Shown one piece after another: positions 9,107 to 51,696 of a DNA stretch of 64,000 bases (the stretch's first letter is position 1; each line of letters opens with the position of its first letter). The notes under the pieces were generated by a model. It did no database searches, was not told the origin of the DNA, and was given only the letters and a program-made list of their open reading frames with translations. The translations under genes and the position numbers were made by a program. This DNA is from Gammaproteobacteria bacterium (lineage in GTDB: Bacteria; Pseudomonadota; Gammaproteobacteria; SZUA-140), in the NCBI GenBank assembly GCA_015492435.1, contig WGFB01000051.1, positions 15,100-79,099 on the forward strand, read 5' to 3'.

Positions 9107-9640
9107 TCACCCGATGGGCATGACCACTGTGGCCTGGGGTCCCTCGTCGCCTTCTTCCTCGAAAAAATGCACCGGCATCTGCTCCGCCAGCTTGTCGAAC
9201 TCGTTGTTCTTGACACTGTTGCGGTGAAAATAGATCTCCCGCCCGTCAAAGGTGCTGATGAAGCCATAATTCTCCTCGGGGAAGATGCGGCTGATGGTGC
9301 CCGCCGGCGTCTCCCCGTGAGACTTGACTTCGCCCCGCTGGCGCCGGGTATGGTCCTGAAGCTGGCGCCTGGCCGCCTCGAAGGAGTCCCGGATGGCCAC
9401 ATAGAGATCCTCGTTGGGCTCGCGCTTGACGATGATTTCCCGGCCGGGCACGGTGATATCGATGAGTACATTATAGAGAACCCCCTGCTGACTGTGCCGG
9501 TGCGGGCACTCGACCACCACGCGGCAACTGGTGATCCTGTCATGAAACTGCTCGAGCTTGGCGGCCTTTTCCCTGATGGTGTTTTCCGCCGCCTCCGAGA
9601 GGGACATGTTGCGGGTGGTTATCTGTAATGGCAATTGCAT
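9107..9640 (-). CDS. hpf: Ribosome hibernation promoting factor (HPF/YfiA family) with a C-terminal cold-shock domain (HPF::CSD fusion)
   Basis: The start is taken at ATG 9640 (MQLPLQITTRNMSLSEAAENTIREKAAKLEQFHDRI...), which has the SD AAGGAG upstream. The N-terminal ~95 aa match HPF/YfiA. The C-terminal region GTISRIFPEENYGFISTFDGREIYFHRNSVKNNEFDKLAEQMPVHFFEEEGDEGPQATVV aligns position-by-position with the CspA encoded at 29607 ([61 protein letters not shown]). Confidence 0.8.
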   Translation of the reverse strand: MQLPLQITTRNMSLSEAAENTIREKAAKLEQFHDRITSCRVVVECPHRHSQQGVLYNVLIDITVPGREIIVKREPNEDLYVAIRDSFEAARRQLQDHTRRQRGEVKSHGETPAGTISRIFPEENYGFISTFDGREIYFHRNSVKNNEFDKLAEQMPVHFFEEEGDEGPQATVVMPIG

Positions 9641-9760
9641 AGACGGCTCCTTATGAAATCGGAATGTTGTGCGCGAAACATAAAGTAAATCCTGAAGTAT
9701 GGCGCCGGCCTTCAGGAACTGGGCGCGCCAACCCAATATAGCCTGGATTACACCATAAAA

Positions 9761-12748: not shown

Positions 12749-12895
12749 CGTTGGCGTCAAGATACAAGGTACAAGTGAAGTGGCTCTTGTACCTTGTATC
12801 TTGTACCTTGTACCTTGTACCTTGTATCTTGTAACTCGTATCTTATATCTCTCACAATCCCAGCCCCCGGTTTTTTGCGATGACTGGGGTAACCC
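12749..12895. repeat. Heptamer-repeat element, copy a: palindromic (GTACAAG)n array plus inverted hairpin head
   Basis: Boundary motif GCGTTGGCGTCA. Left arm CAAGATACAAGGTACAAG, a 10-nt loop, then right arm CTTGTACCTTGTATCTTGTACCTTGTACCTTGTACCTTGTATCTTGTA, then the head on the opposite strand (CCCAGTCATCGCAAAAAACCGGGGGCTGGGATTGTGAGAG). Confidence 0.7.
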
Positions 12896-12901
12896 ACTCC
12901 G

Positions 12902-13945
12902 TCAATAGGTCGCAATCTCCACGGGATCGAAGCGGCGCCCCTGCTGGCGCGCGTGGTTCACCTTGTGTTCCAGGCGCTCGATGATCGCGCGGCAGAAATT
13001 GACGCCCGTGAGATCCTGGGCGGTGTTGAGCCCGCCCGGCGAGAACACGTTGATCTCCACCAGCTTGTCGCCCACGATATCCAGTCCCACCAGAAACATG
13101 CCATCCCGCACGAGGCGCGGGCGAACGGCCTCGGCGATCTCCAGCATGTCATCGGTGATCCGGGCCTTCCGCGCCTTGCCGCCCACCGTCATGTTGCTGC
13201 GGATATCCTCTCCAGGGCGCATCCTGCGTATGGCGGCGTACTCGCCACCGATGCGCAGCGGCCTGCCGTTGACAATGAACAGACGGGTGTCCCCGTGCTC
13301 GATGGCGGGCAGAAACTCCTGGGCGATGACATAGCCCTCGTGGCTGATGGCCTCGATCATCTGGTGAAGGTTGGGCGCATCCAGGGGGCGCAGGAGAAAC
13401 ACATTGCGCCCTCCCGACCCCGCCAGGGGTTTCAGCACGATGGTTCCGCCCATGGCCTTCTGAAAGGCGATAATTTCATCGTGGTCGCGGGTGATGAGCG
13501 CCGCGGGCCTGATGTGGCGGGGAAAGGCCAGGCAATACATTTTGTTGATCCCGCGCGCCAGGCTGTCGGGGTTGTTGAGGGTGATGACGCCGTGGCCCAT
13601 GGCCAGCCGCCCGAAATTGATGCCCGCCAGGCGCGCCCAGGGGCGGTCGATGATATCCTGGGCGGGATCGTTGCGCAGCATCAGGACATCGAGTTCATCC
13701 ACGGTGATCATGACCGGCGCGACCTCTTCCCGCATGATCTCAAGAAAGCGCGCCGCGCTGCGGTGCCTCCCGGATGGCGCCACAAAGGCCCTGGCGCGCA
13801 CGGAGTCATCGGAACATATCTCGAAGTCGGCCACATTGATATAACAGGTTTCATGGCCGAGGTTATTGGCTTCCATGGCCAGGCAGGTGGTGGTATAGGC
13901 GGCGTATTCGGTGCGCAGGTCATTGATGACGAAACCGATCTTCAC
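12902..13945 (-). CDS. Glutathione-synthetase-like ATP-grasp ligase (GshB homolog)
   Basis: 347 aa. Co-linear similarity to E. coli GshB blocks: VLMLRNDP vs VILMRKDPP; LKPLAGSGGRNVF vs LKPLDGMGGASIF; AQEFLPAIEHGDTRLFIVNGRP vs AQNYLPAIKDGDKRVLVVDGEP; FLVGLDIVGDKLVEINVFSP vs IFVGLDIIGDRLTEINVTSP. Its start overlaps the upstream gene's stop as ATGA. Confidence 0.8.
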   Translation of the reverse strand: MKIGFVINDLRTEYAAYTTTCLAMEANNLGHETCYINVADFEICSDDSVRARAFVAPSGRHRSAARFLEIMREEVAPVMITVDELDVLMLRNDPAQDIIDRPWARLAGINFGRLAMGHGVITLNNPDSLARGINKMYCLAFPRHIRPAALITRDHDEIIAFQKAMGGTIVLKPLAGSGGRNVFLLRPLDAPNLHQMIEAISHEGYVIAQEFLPAIEHGDTRLFIVNGRPLRIGGEYAAIRRMRPGEDIRSNMTVGGKARKARITDDMLEIAEAVRPRLVRDGMFLVGLDIVGDKLVEINVFSPGGLNTAQDLTGVNFCRAIIERLEHKVNHARQQGRRFDPVEIATY

Positions 13946-15849
13946 GGCGCCAGGCCCTCGGTCAGGGCCGCCAGGTCGAGCCCCGCGCGCAGGCGCGCCA
14001 GTCTTTCCCGGCAGGATTTCAGCGTCAGGAAGCGCGGCCGCAGCAGGGGCGGACGGACAATGCGGCGCCAGCGCAATTCTTCGATGAATGGCGCCTGTTG
14101 CAGGGCGAACTTCCCGGTCAATAAAACATCCATGTCCCCGCCCCGGCCAAAATAGGACAGCAGGTCGATGAGCCCACGCAGATAGACCACGTCCTTGGTA
14201 AGCCCGCCCCCGCGGTAGACGCGCATGGTGATGTAGTAGGCCTGGTACTGGCTGAACTCGTGGTCATGATGCAAGGCCCGGAATGTTTCGATGAAATCGG
14301 CGCCGGTGACCAGATGATGCACCGCGACAACCCGCGCGGCCAGGGTGCGCAGGCGGGAGCGGTTCAGGCCGCCCACCAGGTATTCCGCCAGCACCGCCAG
14401 GCCTTCCTGGGTCTCGTCATAGGCGGCCAGGCCCACGTGCAACTGACGCAGCGGCTGCACCAGCCCATTGTAGTAGGTGACGAGATGCACCCCCACTTCA
14501 TGCTGCAGGGATGCATCCACCCTCCCCTCGCCCACCTTGACGTCCGTTCCCACCAGGAAATGTCCCTGGGAGACGATGAGCCCGCTGATGTCGTCGCGGA
14601 TCCGCACTGTCGCCGCCAGGCCGGGATCGGTCTTCCGGTAGTATGCCAGTTCCTTTCTGGCCAGCCTCGCGAATTTCCCGGCATCGAGGGCGCGGGACTG
14701 CCTGTCGTCGTGAGTATGGGGGGGCACCTTTTCAAGAATCCCGCGCGCCGCCTTCAGCAGGGCCTTGTCGGCCACGCCGAATACTTGCATGCTGCCGTAG
14801 AGAAATTCCGCCTTGCCACGCGCATCCAGCATCGAAACCTTGCGGTCGAGCTCGCGGCGCTTTTCCTCGAACAACAGGGCCAGGGTGGGATCTTCGATGG
14901 CGTCCAGGGGAATGTTGTAGAGGGCGCGCTTGACCAGGCCCGGATCCACCGTTCGCGGCCGGTAGTGAAACTCGGGAATGACCGCAAAGCGCCCGCGCCG
15001 GAACTGGCGCCAGGCGCTGGCCACGTTGACCGGCGTCGCCTGGAGTATGAGATCGAACTGCTCGTCGATGGCGGCCAGGCGGCGGTCCGTCTCATGCACG
15101 GCGCGGGTCATGGCGTGGCGGCCCAGTTCGTGATAGTGAACGGGCTTGTGGCGGCTGTACTGGCGCGCAAACTCATGGAAGCTCTGTTTCAGGGCCCGCC
15201 CCACTCCCTGGCGCACCGCGCGCAGGGCGTAGGGGAGGCGCGCGCCGGTCTCCCTGTCGTGGTAAACAGGCGCGACCTCCAGACCGAGCAAGGTGCCGCC
15301 CGCGGATCTGAGGCGGGCGGCCGAGAGCAGCGGCTTCATGCCGGGTGGCGCGCAGCGCTGGACGTAATCCACCGTCACACGGGCGCAGCAACGGCGCAGG
15401 CGCACCCTGCGCAAGGCCTGATCCAGGCGTTCAATGACGGGCATGGGCGCATTGTGCCTGGGGGCGAGAACGCGAAAGGCCGGCGCGGGGGCCCTGCCGT
15501 CCCGCTCCCCTTCCGCCACGAGGCCGGGATTCGCCCATATCTCGACGATGAGAAAGGCGCCACAGGCCCTGGATTGCAGGGCGGCGATTTCCTCGACCAG
15601 GCGCGACACATCGCGCTGCGCGCCTGGATCCCCGCTGGCGAGAAGATAGGCGGCCTCGCCGGTCAGCAGGCTTTCCGTCTCCGGGTCGTCCACCCCGGGA
15701 GGGCGGCGGTAGACGCACAGAAAAGGCAGGTGCCGGTCGATATGCGCCCGGCCGCCACCCGGCAGCCTGCGCCTGACCGCGCTGCCGGCCTTCACGAAGC
15801 GGATAATATCTTCGATGACTGTTGCGGCGCGCTCCCGTGGCTTGTTCAT
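13942..15849 (-). CDS. QEGLA-motif protein (DUF1704, family name recalled from memory) with an HExxH(x23)E motif; possibly a zinc peptidase
   Basis: Contains ...LQHEVGVHLVTYYNGLVQPLRQLHVGLAAYDETQEGLAVLAEYLVGG. The start is taken at ATG 15849 (MNKPRERAATV, 635 aa), because the track start at 15999 would overlap the divergent uspA. The ~250-aa N-terminal region has no recognised domain. Confidence 0.7.
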   Translation of the reverse strand: MNKPRERAATVIEDIIRFVKAGSAVRRRLPGGGRAHIDRHLPFLCVYRRPPGVDDPETESLLTGEAAYLLASGDPGAQRDVSRLVEEIAALQSRACGAFLIVEIWANPGLVAEGERDGRAPAPAFRVLAPRHNAPMPVIERLDQALRRVRLRRCCARVTVDYVQRCAPPGMKPLLSAARLRSAGGTLLGLEVAPVYHDRETGARLPYALRAVRQGVGRALKQSFHEFARQYSRHKPVHYHELGRHAMTRAVHETDRRLAAIDEQFDLILQATPVNVASAWRQFRRGRFAVIPEFHYRPRTVDPGLVKRALYNIPLDAIEDPTLALLFEEKRRELDRKVSMLDARGKAEFLYGSMQVFGVADKALLKAARGILEKVPPHTHDDRQSRALDAGKFARLARKELAYYRKTDPGLAATVRIRDDISGLIVSQGHFLVGTDVKVGEGRVDASLQHEVGVHLVTYYNGLVQPLRQLHVGLAAYDETQEGLAVLAEYLVGGLNRSRLRTLAARVVAVHHLVTGADFIETFRALHHDHEFSQYQAYYITMRVYRGGGLTKDVVYLRGLIDLLSYFGRGGDMDVLLTGKFALQQAPFIEELRWRRIVRPPLLRPRFLTLKSCRERLARLRAGLDLAALTEGLAP

Positions 15850-15914
15850 GGAACTTCCATTGCTGCTATACTTTCCCGAAGCCCCTTGGCGTCTGAATGA
15901 TGGAGGATCCTTCC

Positions 15915-16361
15915 ATGCCAGATTACAACCATATCCTAGCCGCTGTCGACTTTTCCGCCGCGGCGGAGGCCATCGGCAAGCGCGCCCTGGATCTGTCAAG
16001 ACGCTATGACTGCCAGGTGACCCTGATCCATGTGGTCGACTACCTGCTTCCCCTTGGCTACGCTGACGACTTCACCCCCTCCCCGGTCCTGATGATCGAC
16101 GAAAACGAACTGCTGGAGCAGAGTCAGCGGTCCCTGCAGACCTTTGCCGAAAAGACGGGACTGGAGGGCGCCCGCCGGCAGGTGCTGCCGGGTTCTCCGC
16201 GCCAGGAGATCATACGCTATGCCCGTGAACACGGGGCGGACCTCATCGTCATCGGCTCCCATGGCCGGCATGGACTGGACCGCCTGCTGGGATCCACCGC
16301 CAGGAGCATTCTCAACGATGCCCCGTGTGACGTGCTGGCGGTGCGCATCAAGGAAGCGTGA
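15915..16361 (+). CDS. uspA: Universal stress protein UspA family
   Basis: MPDYNHILAAVDFS...ADLIVIGSHGRHGLDRLLGSTARSILNDAPCDVLAV. Start at ATG 15915 with GGAGGA 8 nt upstream. Confidence 0.85.
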   Translation: MPDYNHILAAVDFSAAAEAIGKRALDLSRRYDCQVTLIHVVDYLLPLGYADDFTPSPVLMIDENELLEQSQRSLQTFAEKTGLEGARRQVLPGSPRQEIIRYAREHGADLIVIGSHGRHGLDRLLGSTARSILNDAPCDVLAVRIKEA

Positions 16362-16371
16362 ATCCCCGGGC

Positions 16372-17088
16372 ATGACCGGCGGCAGGCGCGGCCCAGGCAA
16401 GATGACACCCTCTCCCGCATCCAGAAACCGCGAGCTGGCGCGGATGCTCCAGGAGATCGAGGGAGAGGTCCAGTACACCCGCGGCATGACGGGCCGGGCG
16501 CGGCTCGACCCCAGGGTGGTGGAGGCCATTGCCGCGGTGCCCCGTCACCGCTTCGTCGACAAGGACGTCAAGGCCCTGGCCTACGCCAACCACCCCCTGC
16601 CCATCGGCGCCGGACAGACCATTTCCCAGCCCTACATCGTCGCCATCATGACGGAACTGCTCGATCTGACACCGGACAGCGTGGTGCTGGAGATCGGTAC
16701 GGGATCCGGCTATCAGGCGGCCATCCTGTCGCGCCTGGTGAAGCAGGTCTACACCATCGAGATCATCCGCGAACTGGGCGAAAAGGCGGCGCAACGGCTG
16801 AAGAAACTGGGTTATGACAACGTCACCGTGCGCATCGGTGATGGCTACCAGGGCTGGCCCGAACACGCGCCCTATGATGCCATCATGGTGACAGCGGCAT
16901 GTCCGACCCTCCCCGCTCCCCTGATCGAGCAGCTCAAGGTGGGCGGCAAAATGATGATCCCCCTGGGGCAGCCGGATTTCAGCCAGGAACTCATGCTGGT
17001 GGAAAAAAAGGAAGACGGCGGGATCGACACCCGCCCCGTGCTGCCCGTCGCGTTCGTGCCCCTGACGGGAGACGGCGTCCTCAATTGA
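16372..17088 (+). CDS. pcm: Protein-L-isoaspartate O-methyltransferase
   Basis: AAVPRHRFVDKD...LPIGAGQTISQPYIVAIMTELLDLTPDSVVLEIGTGSGYQAAILSRL...GDGYQGWPEHAPYDAIMVTAA is near-identical in pattern to E. coli Pcm. The start is uncertain among ATG 16372, 16392 and 16444. Confidence 0.85.
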   Translation: MTGGRRGPGKMTPSPASRNRELARMLQEIEGEVQYTRGMTGRARLDPRVVEAIAAVPRHRFVDKDVKALAYANHPLPIGAGQTISQPYIVAIMTELLDLTPDSVVLEIGTGSGYQAAILSRLVKQVYTIEIIRELGEKAAQRLKKLGYDNVTVRIGDGYQGWPEHAPYDAIMVTAACPTLPAPLIEQLKVGGKMMIPLGQPDFSQELMLVEKKEDGGIDTRPVLPVAFVPLTGDGVLN

Positions 17089-17938
17089 CCAGCAGGCACC
17101 CGCACCCCAGGCCTTCCAGATCGCGCAGCAGCGATTCACCGTATTCCATGAGGCCGGGCCTGCCGCCGATGAACAGCCCGCAGCCCTGCTCCGCGAGCAT
17201 GCGCGCCAGGCAGCCGCAGGTGCTCTCCCGCAGGCGGTGAATGCGGCAGGGGATGCCCTGCGCCCCCAGATATTCCTCGATATGCGCCCTTGCCCGGCGT
17301 TCCTCCGCCTCCTCCATCGGCGGCAGGACAATCGTCATGGGCAGGCTGCCTTCCTGAAAACAAGACGTTGCCAGGCGCAACGCCCGCCAGGCCGCGGGGG
17401 TGCCGTCGAAGTAGACCGTGAGCGCGCGGGGGGCGTGTCCGGCGTCACGTTGCAGGAGCACCGTGGAAGTGGTCTGACGCAGGATCCTCCACAGAACACC
17501 CTCCTCCCTCGTGCTGGAGACCAGTGATTCCCGGACACGGTCCAGGATCAGCAGATCCTCCCCCACGACGCTGGCCAGCACTTCCCGGGAGACATGCCCG
17601 CGCCGCACCTGGAAGGACCAGGGCACCTTGTGCCGGGCGGCGAGCGCCGACAGTTTTTCGCGCACGGCATTCGCCTGTGCCTTGAGCACCCTTTCCATGC
17701 GCTCCCTGTCCAGGGGGCGGATCTCTCCCAACCCATAAGACATCTCCCCAGCGCGCGGCAGGGCGGCCAGGCGCAACAGGTTGATGTCCTCGATGAAGAG
17801 GACATGCATTTCGGCCTTGAGACGCAGGGCGATCTCCACCGTGCCTTGCATCTTTTCCAGATTGCCCGCGGGGGGGCTGAGCACGATGACGACGCGGCGG
17901 ATGTCCGACGCCTGCTCAGGCGTGATGATGTTCATCAT
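17081..17938 (-). CDS. Tandem universal-stress-protein (USP) domain protein
   Basis: Two degenerate USP-like halves; the C-terminus GCGLFIGGRPGLMEYGESLLRDLEGLGCGCLLVN resembles the USP G-x2-G-x9-G-S tail. The start is taken at MMNIIT (17938) and is uncertain; it overlaps the upstream Lon-like gene's 3' end by about 20 nt. Confidence 0.5.
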   Translation of the reverse strand: MMNIITPEQASDIRRVVIVLSPPAGNLEKMQGTVEIALRLKAEMHVLFIEDINLLRLAALPRAGEMSYGLGEIRPLDRERMERVLKAQANAVREKLSALAARHKVPWSFQVRRGHVSREVLASVVGEDLLILDRVRESLVSSTREEGVLWRILRQTTSTVLLQRDAGHAPRALTVYFDGTPAAWRALRLATSCFQEGSLPMTIVLPPMEEAEERRARAHIEEYLGAQGIPCRIHRLRESTCGCLARMLAEQGCGLFIGGRPGLMEYGESLLRDLEGLGCGCLLVN

Positions 17939-20351
17939 GTTCACCAGCCATCTTGCTGTATTCCATGCGTATTTCTGCCAATTTCCGCACGCGCGCCAGC
18001 ACCCTCTGGTTGACACTGCCCTCGGGATAGCATCCTTCCGCATCCGGCGTCCCGGCCTCGACGCCAGTCAACAGGGTGATGGCCTCGTCGATGGTGGAGA
18101 CGGGATAGATGGCGAAGTCACCGGCCTCGACGGCCGCGACGACATCGCGGCGCAGCATGAGATGGGCTGAATTGGCGCGGGGTATCAGGACGCCCTGAAA
18201 CCTGGCGGCCCCCTGTAATCTGCATACATCGAAAAAGCCCTCTATTTTCTCGTTGACCCCGCCGATGGCCTGCACCTGGCCATGCTGGTTGATGGAGCCG
18301 GTCACCGCCAGCCATTGGCGCAGGGGCACATCGGCGAGAGACGACAACAAGGCGCACAGCTCGGCCACCGAGGCGCTGTCCCCCTCGATCTGGCCATAGG
18401 ATTGCTCGAACACCAGGCTGGCGGACAGGGACAGGGGCTGCTCGCGCGCGTAGCGCGCGGCGAGGAAGGAGGACAGGATCAGCACCCCCTTTGAGTGAAT
18501 GGCGCCGCCCAGTTCCACTTCCCGTTCGATGTCGATCACCTCTCCCTCCCCCAGGCGGGTATTGGCCGTGATGCGCGTGGGCTGCCCAAAGGAGAAATCG
18601 CCCAGATCCATGACGGAGAGGCCGTTCACCTGGCCAACGCGCTCCCCCGCGGTGTCGATGAGCACGATGCCACGCCGGATGTTCTCGTAGACCCTGTCAC
18701 GCACCCGGTCCGTGCGCCGGATACGGGCCGCGATGGCTCTTTCAACATCTTCATGCTCGATCGCCTCGTGGTCATGGCCGCGCGCCCAGTAGTCGGCCTC
18801 GCACAGCAGATTGCCGATATCCAGCAGATGGGTCGACAGCTTTTCCGCGTCGCCGGCGGCGCGGGCGCTGTATTCGATGATGCGCGCCACGGCATGGCGC
18901 GTAACAGGCAGCAGGCCGTCGCGGCGCGCCAGCGTGGCGATGAGGCGGGCATAGAGCATGTGGTTCTCGCTGCTGCGACCGATGTCCTCCTCGAAATCGG
19001 CGCACACCTTGAACAGTTCGTCGAACTCGTCGTCGTAGGCCATCAGCAGGTAATACAACATGCGGTCGCCGATGAGCACCACCTTGAGATCCATGTCCAC
19101 CTGCTCGGGTTCCAGGGACAGCGTGCTCACCAGACTGTAGAGTTCGCCCGGCGACTGTATGCGGATCCTGCCCGCCTTGAGTATGCGCTTGAGTCCTTCC
19201 CAGGCCAGGGGTTGCATGAGCACCTTGTTGGCGTCCAGGATGAGGTATCCGCCATTGGCCCGATGCAGGGCGCCCGCCTTGATGAGGGTGAAATCCGTGA
19301 CCAGGGCGCCCATCTGGGAAAGATGCTCCACGCGCCCCACCAGGTTCTGGTAACTGGGGTGGTCCTCGTAAACCACCGGCGCGCCGTGATTGCCGCCGTG
19401 GTCCACCAGTACGTTGACTTCATAGCGCCGGAAGCTTCCGCTTCCGGCGGAAACGAAATCGAAAGGCTGGGGAGGCGCCTCCTCCTGGCGGCGGAACTCG
19501 TCAAGGTGCTCCATGATATCCGCCCGCACCGCGTCCAGGTGGCTTGCCACCCGCGGAAGTTCCTGATACTTCGTCTTCAGTTCGTCAATGAGATTGCCCA
19601 CCGCGTACCGGCCTATCTCTTGATCCAGCCTGCGGACCTCCTCCCGCGCCTCGCGCTGCCACTGCGGCGTCTTGAGCATGATGCTGCCCAGTTTCTCCTG
19701 CAACGCCGCCACCGCCTGCTCGATACGCTGCTTCTCCTCGTCGGACAATTTTTCGTATTCCTCGGGCTTGATGACCTCCTTGTCTTTCTCCGGGGCGAAG
19801 GCGAACCCCGCCGGTGTGCGAATGAGCGCGATCCCCTGCTGCTCCCCCTCCCTGGCCAGATCCGCCAGGGCCCGTTCACGGCGCTCCTTGAACCTGCCTT
19901 CTATCTCGCGCACGCGGGCGTGATATTCCTCCGTCTCGAAGGCGAGGGGGATGGAGGCCCGCAGGTCGTCCACGAGACGCGCCATGTCGGCGCGCAGGCG
20001 CTGCCCCACTCCAGGTGGCAGGCGCATGGCGCGGGGACGCGCGGGTTGTTCGAAATTGTTGACATAGCAGAGATCATCGGGCGTTTCGGCCCGCGCCGCC
20101 ATCTGTTCCAGATACTGGCGCACCACGGTGTATTTCCCGATACCGGAAGGGCCGAGGACGAAGAGATTGTAGCCTCCGCGGCGGATACCCACACCGAAAC
20201 GCAGGGCTTCCAGCGCGCGTTCCTGGCCGATGATCCCGTCGAGGTCCTCCAGCTCTTCTGTGGTGCTGAAATGGAACTGCTGCGGATCGCATGTGCGATA
20301 CAATGCGTCGGGTGGGAGCGGCGATACCGGGGCCGGGAGTGATTCTTCCAT
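17916..20351 (-). CDS. Lon-like ATP-dependent protease, YcbZ (LonH-like) family: AAA+ ATPase plus S16 proteolytic domain
   Basis: 811 aa. Walker A GPSGIGKYT. The C-terminal region is highly similar to E. coli YcbZ (ELGGAIHSKGVLILSSFL..., SLVFEQSYGQIEGDSASVAELCALLSSLADVP..., GGVNEKIEGFF), including the catalytic Ser of the Lon protease domain. Confidence 0.85.
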   Translation of the reverse strand: MEESLPAPVSPLPPDALYRTCDPQQFHFSTTEELEDLDGIIGQERALEALRFGVGIRRGGYNLFVLGPSGIGKYTVVRQYLEQMAARAETPDDLCYVNNFEQPARPRAMRLPPGVGQRLRADMARLVDDLRASIPLAFETEEYHARVREIEGRFKERRERALADLAREGEQQGIALIRTPAGFAFAPEKDKEVIKPEEYEKLSDEEKQRIEQAVAALQEKLGSIMLKTPQWQREAREEVRRLDQEIGRYAVGNLIDELKTKYQELPRVASHLDAVRADIMEHLDEFRRQEEAPPQPFDFVSAGSGSFRRYEVNVLVDHGGNHGAPVVYEDHPSYQNLVGRVEHLSQMGALVTDFTLIKAGALHRANGGYLILDANKVLMQPLAWEGLKRILKAGRIRIQSPGELYSLVSTLSLEPEQVDMDLKVVLIGDRMLYYLLMAYDDEFDELFKVCADFEEDIGRSSENHMLYARLIATLARRDGLLPVTRHAVARIIEYSARAAGDAEKLSTHLLDIGNLLCEADYWARGHDHEAIEHEDVERAIAARIRRTDRVRDRVYENIRRGIVLIDTAGERVGQVNGLSVMDLGDFSFGQPTRITANTRLGEGEVIDIEREVELGGAIHSKGVLILSSFLAARYAREQPLSLSASLVFEQSYGQIEGDSASVAELCALLSSLADVPLRQWLAVTGSINQHGQVQAIGGVNEKIEGFFDVCRLQGAARFQGVLIPRANSAHLMLRRDVVAAVEAGDFAIYPVSTIDEAITLLTGVEAGTPDAEGCYPEGSVNQRVLARVRKLAEIRMEYSKMAGEHDEHHHA

Positions 20352-20399: not shown

Positions 20400-20646
20400 C
20401 CCAGTCATTGCATAAATTGGGTACTGGGATTGTGAAAGGTACAAGGTACAAGATACAAGGGAAGCAGCCTTTTGTATCTTGTATCTTGTATCTTGTACCT
20501 TTGTATTTTGTATCCTGCGCCTTCCTGTGGCCTGCTGCTGGATAAAACCTGGGGTGACGCCAGCGCTCGGGGCCGCCACACGCAGCAGGCGTATGAAACA
20601 AGGCGTTATCCTCAGTTGGCACTCGCAATTTTATGCAACTGCCGGG
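20400..20646. repeat. Heptamer-repeat MITE-like element, complete copy b (head hairpin + palindromic heptamer arrays + right terminal inverted repeat)
   Basis: Head CCCAGTCATTGCATAAATTGGGTACTGGGATTGTGAAAG (20400-20438); GTACAAGGTACAAGATACAAGG; a 9-nt loop; TTTTGTATCTTGTATCTTGTATCTTGTACCTTTGTATTTTGTATCC; then the right TIR GTTGGCACTCGCAATTTTATGCAACTGCCGGG (20616-20646), which is an imperfect inverse of the head core. It lies in the divergent promoter region between the Lon-like gene and phhB. Confidence 0.7.
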
Positions 20647-22556: not shown

Positions 22557-22605
22557 GCAAGGGTACAAGTTACAAGGTACAAGGTACAAGATACAAGGGT
22601 ACAAG
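22557..22605. repeat. Heptamer array, copy c (7 tandem GTACAAG-type units), in the archease-rtcB intergenic spacer
   Basis: GCAAGGGTACAAGTTACAAGGTACAAGGTACAAGATACAAGGGTACAAG lies immediately 5' of the rtcB ATG inside a co-directional operon. The unit length of 7 is not a multiple of 3, so it is non-coding. Confidence 0.75.
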
Positions 22606-26020: not shown

Positions 26021-26148
26021 GCGTTGGCGTCATATTCAAAGCAGGTACAAGAGGCAAGGTACAAGATACAAGGGACAAGGTACAAGGGGTAGCGTTTTGT
26101 TTCTTGTACCTCTCATGGTCCCAGCACCCAATTTTCCGCAATGACTGG
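26021..26148. repeat. Heptamer-repeat element, copy e (boundary motif + heptamer array + inverted head hairpin)
   Basis: GCGTTGGCGTCA boundary (shared with copy a); GGTACAAGAGGCAAGGTACAAGATACAAGGGACAAGGTACAAGG; spacer; CTTGTACC; then inverted head CCCAGCACCCAATTTTCCGCAATGACTGG. Confidence 0.7.
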
Positions 26149-34246: not shown

Positions 34247-34353
34247 CCCAGTCATTGTAAAAAATTAGGTACTGGGATTGTGAAAGGTACAAGTTACAAG
34301 GTACAAGATACAAGGGAATCGGTTGGCACTCGCAATTTTATGCAACTGCCGGG
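34247..34353. repeat. Heptamer-repeat MITE-like element, compact complete copy f (head hairpin, 4 heptamers, right TIR)
   Basis: CCCAGTCATTGTAAAAAATTAGGTACTGGGATTGTGAAAG + GTACAAGTTACAAGGTACAAGATACAAGG + GGTTGGCACTCGCAATTTTATGCAACTGCCGGG, inserted between the msrAB stop and its hairpin terminator. Confidence 0.7.
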
Positions 34354-34355
34354 AA

Positions 34356-34390
34356 AGAAAGAGCCCCGCTCATGGCGGGGCTCTTTTGGG
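34356..34390. terminator. Bidirectional rho-independent terminator between convergent msrAB and the second csp gene
   Basis: AAGAGCCCCGC-TCATG-GCGGGGCTCTT, followed by TTTTGGG on the plus strand and TTTCTTTCCC on the minus strand. Confidence 0.7.
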
Positions 34391-34405
34391 CCGCGATCGC
34401 TTATT

Positions 34406-34609
34406 TTACTGCGGTACGACGTTGACTGCGCTGGGGCCCTTGGCGCCCTGCTCGCTGTCATAGGTTACGGTCTGCCCTTCCGCCAGTGACTTGAATCCGC
34501 TGGCCTGGATGGCGGAGTGATGCACGAAAACATCGGCGCTGCCGTCGGAAGGTGCGATAAAGCCAAAACCCTTGCTGTCGTTAAACCATTTTACTGTACC
34601 TGTAGCCAT
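34406..34609 (-). CDS. Cold-shock protein, CspA family (second paralog)
   Basis: 67 aa; [67 protein letters not shown]. The track ORF 34406..34828 carries a spurious 73-aa N-terminal extension through the AT-rich leader. Confidence 0.93.
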
Positions 34610-34782
34610 TCTGGTTACCTCGTGTGTTGGTGAAATGTAATGTGTGCAGGTTACTGTTGAGAAATTACGGAAGAGATGACGCTTGATACTGCACTGCGAG
34701 GAACTACCGGAACCACTACGATACAAAAATCTGCAACGCCAGCCATCGTACCCCATGGCGGAGCCGAATGCCAGCAATATTT

Positions 34783-51595: not shown

Positions 51596-51696
51596 GGGCG
51601 CCGGGTACAAGATACTAGGTACAAGCGACAAGATGCAAGTTACAAGATGCAAGGCGCGAGGAATGGCAAGCTTTTGTATCTGATTTCTGGCGCCCC
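51596..51696. repeat. Heptamer-repeat element, degenerate copy i flanked by inverted GGGGCGCC/GGCGCCCC
   Basis: GGGTACAAGATACTAGGTACAAGCGACAAGATGCAAGTTACAAGATGCAAGG ... CTTTTGTATCTG. Confidence 0.55.

Follow-up and report, generated by a model that had tools for sequence, protein, structure and literature searches.

What do a putative metallopeptidase and a relative of glutathione synthetase do side by side? This question is raised by a 64-kb stretch of a gammaproteobacterial contig (WGFB01000051.1, positions 15,100 to 79,099; hereafter the window), which carries a peptidase-like gene (gene A) followed by a ligase gene (gene B) on its minus strand. The locus is best explained as a translationally coupled two-gene operon and a reduced form of a widespread three-gene cassette that comprises a gene of the N-formylglutamate amidohydrolase (FGase) family, A and B. 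For its function we favour, tentatively and with a little less than even confidence, an ATP-driven ligase/carboxypeptidase pair that acts on a short acidic (glutamate-type) peptide or N-acyl-amino acid. The two genes and their junction are:

13942-15849, minus strand: gene A, an open reading frame (ORF) of 635 amino acids (aa) with an ATG start at 15849 and a TGA stop at 13942-13944, encoding a two-domain protein.
12902-13945, minus strand: gene B, an ORF of 347 aa with a GTG start at 13945, encoding a GshB-like ATP-grasp ligase of the NF009110/PRK12458 type.
13942-13945, minus strand: GTGA overlap of the A stop and the B start, read from the sequence; translational coupling.

Gene pair and start sites

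As a description of the locus, the initial annotation is partly confirmed. Both ORFs are found on the minus strand where it had placed them, with lengths that agree with those of database homologues. The overlap had been given as ATGA; its length of 4 nt stands, while the sequence is GTGA and the start codon of B is GTG. At the junction, A ends in GCG CCG TGA, and GTG A.. in the +1 frame is the start of B.

Homologues of A at 98% identity also have 635 aa. A longer TTG-initiated ORF for A (685 aa, reaching to 15999) was considered and rejected. The homologues have 635 aa and begin at the same Met, and ATG 15849 was therefore taken as the start. B is 100% identical to the 347-aa representative of a cluster in public data whose members are labelled 'Chromatiales bacterium'. 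The family matches of both proteins are beyond chance (PF08014 for A, E 1.5e-87; PF02955 for B, E 2.5e-49). A promoter and terminator scan yielded nothing informative.

Distribution of the cassette

The A family was searched against one genome per species, which yielded 80 loci from more than 15 phyla. These loci are found in Gammaproteobacteria, Alphaproteobacteria, Chloroflexota, Planctomycetota, Acidobacteriota and Bacteroidota, and further in Calditrichota, Ignavibacteria, Campylobacterota, Gemmatimonadota, Actinomycetota, Poribacteria and others. A B-type ligase gene adjoins A in 78 of the 80 loci, nearly always immediately downstream. Among the 70 loci with B directly downstream, the stop and start overlap by 4 nt in 44 (ATGA 35, GTGA 8, TTGA 1) and by 1 nt in three, and a gap of at most 30 nt was observed in 18. 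Five contexts were also fetched from the B side and all contain an adjacent A gene; four have FGase, MATCAP (A-type) and GSH-S (B-type) genes, and in the fifth (L084), whose contig is fragmented, MATCAP and GSH-S genes stand together and no FGase gene was called. At locus L025, two A-B pairs stand in tandem, the pair having been duplicated as a unit. Taken together, the adjacency in 78 of 80 loci, the 44 overlaps, the duplication as a unit and the B-side contexts argue for a functional link between A and B, and the co-occurrence of the two families is borne out across the phyla sampled.

The third member of the cassette is an FGase gene (about 266 aa, Pfam E 5e-19), which adjoins the pair in 69 of the 80 loci. 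It is usually located immediately upstream, often with a 4-nt overlap of its own. It is not HutG, since TIGR02017 gives only 22.5 against a cutoff of 278.75. No FGase homologue was detected in the whole 64-kb window, and none in the fetched stretches of relatives at 79%, 67% and 58% identity.

The association with the ligase is restricted to long A-type proteins. Short-form QEGLA proteins (Pseudoalteromonas, Aeromonas; about 430 aa in Pseudoalteromonas, two annotated ones 426 and 449 aa) have the same catalytic domain, with a TIGR02421 score of 344.7 bits compared to 343.4 for A, and lack the N-terminal domain. In three short-form loci examined, neither an ATP-grasp ligase gene nor an FGase gene was found within 5-6 kb on either side.

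The solitary short-form genes, together with a family name that reportedly goes back to a Pseudomonas promoter study, lend some support to the view that A and B are only co-regulated neighbours without a common substrate. On this view A might, for example, act like a regulator or associate with DNA ('flavohemoglobin expression-modulating'), B being an unrelated biosynthetic ligase. We consider this very unlikely: in more than 15 phyla A and B have stayed adjacent although none of the flanking genes is constant, the overlap of 4 nt has been conserved, the pair was duplicated as a unit and the catalytic residues of both proteins are invariant.

Beyond the three genes, the cassette has no constant company. 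Any further family is seen at most 4 times among 128 first neighbours and at most 4 times among 114 second neighbours, and the flanks contain no conserved substrate or carrier gene of at least 90 aa. A conserved carrier or precursor ORF of 25-95 aa near the cassettes was likewise not found. A search for riboswitches and other Rfam RNAs in ten cassettes and the whole window gave nothing near the A or B genes. PADLOC models of anti-phage defence matched neither A nor B, and a role as a defence system was rejected on this basis.

Several loci deviate from the usual arrangement. A second GshB-like ligase paralogue, 57-65% identical and with the catalytic motif kept, is present in several Planctomycetota and Gemmatimonadota loci (L022, L037, L054, L078, L066). 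At L085 (6903-9014, minus strand) the FGase gene follows A and B, and the next gene downstream, which is on the opposite strand, encodes an M3 oligopeptidase. One cassette (L007, JAIVTC010000162.1) is located on a contig binned as a Bathyarchaeota metagenome-assembled genome, which could reflect horizontal transfer or a binning error. In about 11 of 85 loci, which belong to different phyla (L017, L024, L027, L032, L034, L035, L040, L047, L054, L062, L084), genes for Mg2+ transporters of three unrelated families (MgtE, CorA, CNNM/CorC) occur within a few kb of the cassette, and at L047 an MgtE gene separates A from B. Genes for MscS channels, a K+ channel, Hsp20 and Usp were likewise observed repeatedly near cassettes, at low frequency. 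These transporter and channel neighbours may hint at ion or osmotic stress; the counts are small.

Catalytic domain of the peptidase

The features of the catalytic part of A are:

13984-15087, minus strand: MATCAP-type catalytic domain of A, about aa 255-622.
14485-14502, minus strand: HEVGVH (HExxxH; H450, E451, H455; aa 450-455), read from the translation, aligned to MATCAP and present in 81 of 81 homologues.
14395-14409, minus strand: QEGLA, with E482 as predicted third metal ligand, read from the translation and aligned to MATCAP; YDETQEGLA spans aa 477-485.

Pfam family PF08014, formerly DUF1704, matches aa 282-622 of A with 294.4 bits (cutoff 27). The family is now named MATCAP, for microtubule-associated tyrosine carboxypeptidase (Pfam PF08014). 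A exceeds the cutoff of the hypothetical equivalog TIGR02421 ('QEGLA') only by a small margin (343.4 versus 338.65 bits). Its model spans only aa 255-619, and the N-terminal domain of A therefore lies outside the TIGR02421 definition. These hidden Markov model (HMM) matches agree with the family assignment given initially.

A phmmer search of the single A sequence against the PDB sequences gave no match, and a profile built from 32 A-family sequences reached human MATCAP/KIAA0895L in the PDB with an E value of 3e-9. In the profile alignment, H450-E451-xxx-H455 corresponds to H280-E281-xxx-H285 of MATCAP (the 7z6s chain has Q at position 281), and Q481-E482-G483 corresponds to E315-E316-G317. 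The six residues H450, E451, H455, Q481, E482 and G483 are each 100% conserved in the 81 aligned homologues. The AlphaFold 2 model of A has a predicted local distance difference test score (pLDDT) of 92.1. A has the fold of the solved MATCAP catalytic domain, and MATCAP is the best structural match of the full-length model. The two-domain architecture is common to at least 120 homologues, a number that is a lower bound.

Both motifs named in the initial annotation, HEVGVH and YDETQEGLA, are present in the translation of A, although their interpretation needs correction. HEVGVH had been described as HExxH. The thermolysin-type gluzincin motif is absent from A, since three residues stand between the Glu and the second His, and the motif reads HExxxH. 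The third metal ligand had been assigned to the Glu 23 residues after HEVGVH (E479). This position is variable, since only 47 of 81 homologues have a Glu there and the others have A, P, S, G or Q, whereas the invariant E482 within QEGLA aligns with E316 of MATCAP. The proposal that QEGLA marks a Glu-liganded metallopeptidase site is upheld in this form, E482 being aligned to the ligand of the 'EEG' motif in MATCAP. Judged by sequence, A would be 'gluzincin-like' in the broad sense only, with a Glu as third ligand and the motif spacing of M49/MATCAP. It is accordingly predicted to be a metal-dependent carboxypeptidase of the MATCAP family with H450, H455 and E482 as metal ligands.

MATCAP was identified only in 2022, as a missing tubulin detyrosinase. 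KIAA0895L has been described as carrying an M49-like HExxxH motif beside an 'EEG' motif that contributes a putative third metal ligand (Nicot et al., PMC10499314). TMCP1 and TMCP2 take off C-terminal Tyr and Glu and shorten poly-Glu chains, which makes them deglutamylases too (PMC10499314). The statement that the family is known 'by name only' does not hold, because tubulin carboxypeptidase and deglutamylase activities have been characterised for its human members. The human proteins MATCAP/TMCP1 (KIAA0895L) and TMCP2 (KIAA0895) (PDB 7z5g, 7z6s) share PF08014, HExxxH and the Glu of (E/Q)EG with A. An R..RGG..KD..YL.G block is also conserved in both MATCAP and A, and by analogy A is expected to be a C-terminal exopeptidase. 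In contrast to human MATCAP, to which it is about 20% identical, A is bacterial and has no tubulin substrate, carries an extra pseudo-FGase N-terminal domain and is coupled to an ATP-grasp gene.

N-terminal domain of the peptidase

15145-15828, minus strand: N-terminal domain of A (about aa 8-235), with an FGase/M14-carboxypeptidase-like alpha/beta fold, probably catalytically dead.

The N-terminal region of about 250 aa had been regarded as free of any recognisable domain, and indeed the first ~240 aa of A have no Pfam or NCBIfam match, including PF05013, at an E value of 0.01 or better. A degenerate FGase-like fold is nevertheless recognised. Profile-profile comparison of the N-terminal domain with the cassette FGases in global mode gave an E value of 1.6e-6 and a probability of 80%, and the domain has the fold of the FGase family (PF05013) and is a remote homologue of it. 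Its conservation equals that of the catalytic domain, and R26, R39, R48 and E103 vary little or not at all.

Compared to members of the FGase family (PF05013; PDB 2q7s, 2odf; HutG), the domain lacks an HMM match and has lost the conserved histidines. The positions of the conserved His residues of the cassette FGases are occupied by K20, S23 and W105 in A or fall within a deleted block. Of the conserved polar residues, R26, R34, D38 and E103 are kept; the conserved His/acidic set of active FGases is not. By analogy with M14-type enzymes, the lost histidines would correspond to the metal ligands of FGases, and the sequence thus points to a degenerate FGase-like domain that is probably non-catalytic. 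Several Arg and acidic residues are kept, and the domain is therefore probably a substrate-binding or partner-docking module.

A search with the N-terminal domain against 1.84 billion representative proteins returned 626 clusters (50% identity) with E values of 1e-3 or better. In the full-length matches (~620-660 aa) the domain is placed at the N-terminus, and it therefore defines a 'long' subfamily. Three proteins of 891 aa (P0071, P0098, P0114) have an active-type FGase (PF05013) fused N-terminally to the long MATCAP-like protein, which places two FGase-fold domains in tandem ahead of the peptidase.

The ATP-grasp ligase

B matches GSH-S_ATP (PF02955), GSH-S_N (E 2.6e-7) and RimK in Pfam. 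Residues 17-318 align to residues 19-302 of Escherichia coli GshB with an E value of 5e-33. With the B-family profile, the match to E. coli GshB is full-length (8.8e-49), while RimK is matched only in the ATP-grasp part (~1e-12). B thus has the GSH-S_N plus GSH-S_ATP architecture and the GshB fold, and the initial assignment to a GshB-like ATP-grasp ligase collinear with GshB is corroborated. Like E. coli GshB (PDB 1gsa), B has the Mg-binding E-I-N motif and the flexible loop with its Arg, and its catalytic residues are invariant in the family. Its identity to E. coli GshB is nevertheless only 28-29%; it has additional inserts, is extended at the C-terminus by about 25 conserved aa and is paired with a MATCAP-like gene.

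The scores of B are clearly below the cutoffs of the canonical gshB equivalogs (EC 6.3.2.3), with 186.8 against 299.05 for TIGR01380 and 199.9 against 272 for NF003573. The cutoff of NF009110/PRK12458 is narrowly missed (399.1 against 408 bits). Since the syntenic orthologue of Sinorhizobium meliloti, which is 47% identical, scores 501 bits, B was treated, on grounds of synteny, as a divergent NF009110 member. That orthologue is part of a full cassette on pSymB of S. meliloti 1021 and 2011 (NC_003078.1, 1122942-1126743), in which A is 35% identical to the A protein of the window.

The domain organisation of B raises the possibility that it is an alternative synthetase of glutathione or of an analogue, and that A degrades glutathione or gamma-glutamyl peptides together with the FGase. 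The GshB fold, domain order and flexible loop speak for this, as do the name 'glutathione synthase' that RefSeq and IMG give to B homologues and the title of NF009110, glutathione synthetase. We consider it highly unlikely, however, given the wide margin by which B misses TIGR01380 and NF003573. In addition, a strain of S. meliloti 2011 with its chromosomal gshB (SMc00419) inactivated lacks glutathione, as validated by high-performance liquid chromatography (PMC7063052), although its pSymB cassette is intact. This argues indirectly against a replacement of GshB by B-type ligases, at least under those conditions. No recurrent gshA-like gene was found among the flanking genes scanned, and the cassette is present in Chloroflexota, Planctomycetota, Bacteroidota, Ignavibacteria and Campylobacterota. 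Most members of these groups are not known to contain glutathione. The database name 'glutathione synthase' is thus probably wrong for the NF009110-type subfamily, and the widespread annotation of such proteins would have to be corrected.

A second gshB-like gene was looked for elsewhere in the 64-kb window and not found. B is nonetheless not a sole canonical gshB without ties to QEGLA genes: it falls below the equivalog cutoffs and its co-occurrence with A is near-universal, and the idea of a functional pairing put forward in the initial annotation therefore stands.

Proposed function

The families, folds, conserved catalytic residues, synteny and coupling of A and B are observed, and from synteny and homology we infer a function in ligation and trimming. 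Taken as a whole, the interpretation offered in the initial annotation is partly supported.

On the favoured small-peptide reading, A would be a cytoplasmic metallocarboxypeptidase with its metal bound by H450, H455 and E482 and with E451 as general base. Its pseudo-FGase domain, which has lost the putative metal-binding histidines, would bind the substrate or dock a partner. B would convert a free carboxylate into an acyl-phosphate and couple an amino acid to it in the manner of GshB (and, as regards the addition, of RimK), placing a C-terminal residue on a short acidic glutamate-type peptide or N-acyl-amino acid. A would remove this residue again, as MATCAP does, so that both enzymes would act on the same bond of a small acidic peptide. 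Where a separate FGase is present, as in most genomes, this enzyme would go on to cleave the N-acyl-amino acid that is left. The outcome would be an ATP-driven, reversible small-peptide pool.

A comparable logic is realised in the N-acetylaspartylglutamate (NAAG) cycle with its RimK-like synthetase (RIMKLA/B), glutamate carboxypeptidase II and M14-like aspartoacylase. There, an ATP-grasp ligase makes the peptide, a metallocarboxypeptidase trims it by its last residue at the C-terminus, and the N-acyl-amino acid is cleaved by an amidohydrolase. For this cycle, as for glutathionylspermidine synthetase/amidase, the likeness to the cassette is an analogy of logic only, and the hydrolases belong to other families.

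We lean to a small substrate because B is GshB-like, including the small-substrate N-terminal domain and the loop, because relatives of the FGase act on small N-acyl-amino acids, because no gene for a protein substrate or carrier travels with the cassette and because the self-contained cassette occurs in unrelated phyla. The glutamate theme would fit by analogy, as the MATCAP-family enzymes TMCP1 and TMCP2 are deglutamylases as well (PMC10499314).

Four points weigh against the small-peptide reading. The only characterised MATCAP-family enzymes work on protein tails and not on small peptides. The window and its clade lack the FGase, and the three-step scheme therefore cannot apply here unmodified. 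Short-form QEGLA proteins are found without a ligase, and the peptidase fold therefore needs no ligase partner. Finally, A and B could be neighbours because they serve one pathway while acting on different bonds.

The activity of the human enzymes, which all trim protein C-termini and poly-Glu chains (PMC10499314), speaks instead for reversible C-terminal protein tailing, in which B would add one or more residues, e.g. Glu, to a housekeeping protein and A would trim them. This would resemble the opposition of TTL/TTLL to MATCAP/CCP on tubulin. A bacterial precedent is RimK-RimB (RimABK), which glutamylates ribosomal protein S6 and in which an ATP-grasp ligase is paired with a dedicated hydrolase that undoes its work (PMC11957791). 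RimB differs from A in being a retropepsin-like aspartic protease, the ligase is RimK-type and not GshB-type, and S6 is an established substrate. A protein could be docked by the large pseudo-enzyme domain, and in the clade of the window the pair is found amid stress and ribosome genes (Usp, PCMT, LonC-like, Rsd, RelA/SpoT and a hibernation factor of the S30AE-cold-shock-domain type, S30AE-CSD). This synteny is confined to one gammaproteobacterial clade, however, no conserved candidate substrate gene is located nearby, and small N-acyl-amino acids are the known substrates of the partner's FGase family. In our view protein tailing is the main rival of the small-peptide reading, though rather unlikely.

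It is conceivable, though improbable, that A-B is a bacterial system of reversible C-terminal protein tagging and represents the prokaryotic counterpart, possibly the source, of the tubulin tyrosination/glutamylation cycle, with the dead FGase domain as reader of the tagged C-terminus. The tubulin cycle (TTL/TTLL versus MATCAP, VASH and CCP) differs from A-B in that its genes are eukaryotic, unlinked and act on tubulin, and B is not a TTL-family protein.

A, B and the FGase belong to known families, and RefSeq names all three by family. A literature search, from which the ATP-grasp survey of Iyer et al. 2009 remained outside, returned no publication on the cassette, the pseudo-FGase domain or the function of bacterial MATCAP-family proteins. 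The parts are ordinary; the module is coherent and widespread and has an unexpected tie to the tubulin-code enzyme MATCAP. A large bacterial MATCAP subfamily is fused to a pseudo-FGase domain and almost always encoded beside a GshB-like ligase, which suggests that a ligase/hydrolase module has gone unrecognised. According to its substrate, this module would be a new small-peptide metabolite cycle, as favoured here, or a new bacterial protein-tail modification. The cassette is carried by a genetically tractable model organism, S. meliloti 1021 (pSymB).

Surroundings of the locus

12760-12850, minus strand: heptamer array ((G/A)TACAAG, about nine copies) with an inverted copy, recognised from the sequence, with Tandem Repeats Finder (TRF) and by RNA folding.

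The neighbourhood of the pair contains genes for a LonC-like protease, a Usp-like protein, divergent PCMT and Usp, then A and B, followed by Rsd/AlgQ, RelA/SpoT, S30AE-CSD, UDG and UvrC. This gene order is largely common to the window and its relatives at 67% and 58% identity. Genes for Usp, PCMT, the Usp-like protein of 283-320 aa and the LonC-like protein (811 aa) recur beside A-B in varying combinations within this gammaproteobacterial clade (window 15897-20351; L001, L064, L091, L092). A LonC-like gene was also observed near the cassette in one epsilonproteobacterial locus. The QEGLA family was reportedly named in a Pseudomonas fhp promoter study, in which a Lon-like protease and a QEGLA protein are said to have been isolated together.

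The gene at 9107-9736 (minus strand) encodes a protein with a ribosome-hibernation-factor-like S30AE domain and a C-terminal cold-shock domain, located beside RelA/SpoT and Rsd. Its L091 orthologue carries PF02482 and PF00313. At 34356-34740 (minus strand), an Rfam cspA thermoregulator was detected with 87.1 bits (gathering score 78).

The hairpin formed by the heptamer array has a stem of 17-18 bp and lies 52 nt past the stop codon of B, with a folding energy of -35 kcal/mol, a z value of -4.9 and no U-tract. It is a repetitive extragenic palindromic (REP)-like element and possibly marks the end of the operon. Further intergenic 7-bp arrays of (G/A)TACAAG or its complement bring the positions in the window to 12785-12850, 20436-20523, 22562-22605, 26043-26087, 34284-34315 and 51607-51653, which looks like a genome-wide REP-like repeat family.

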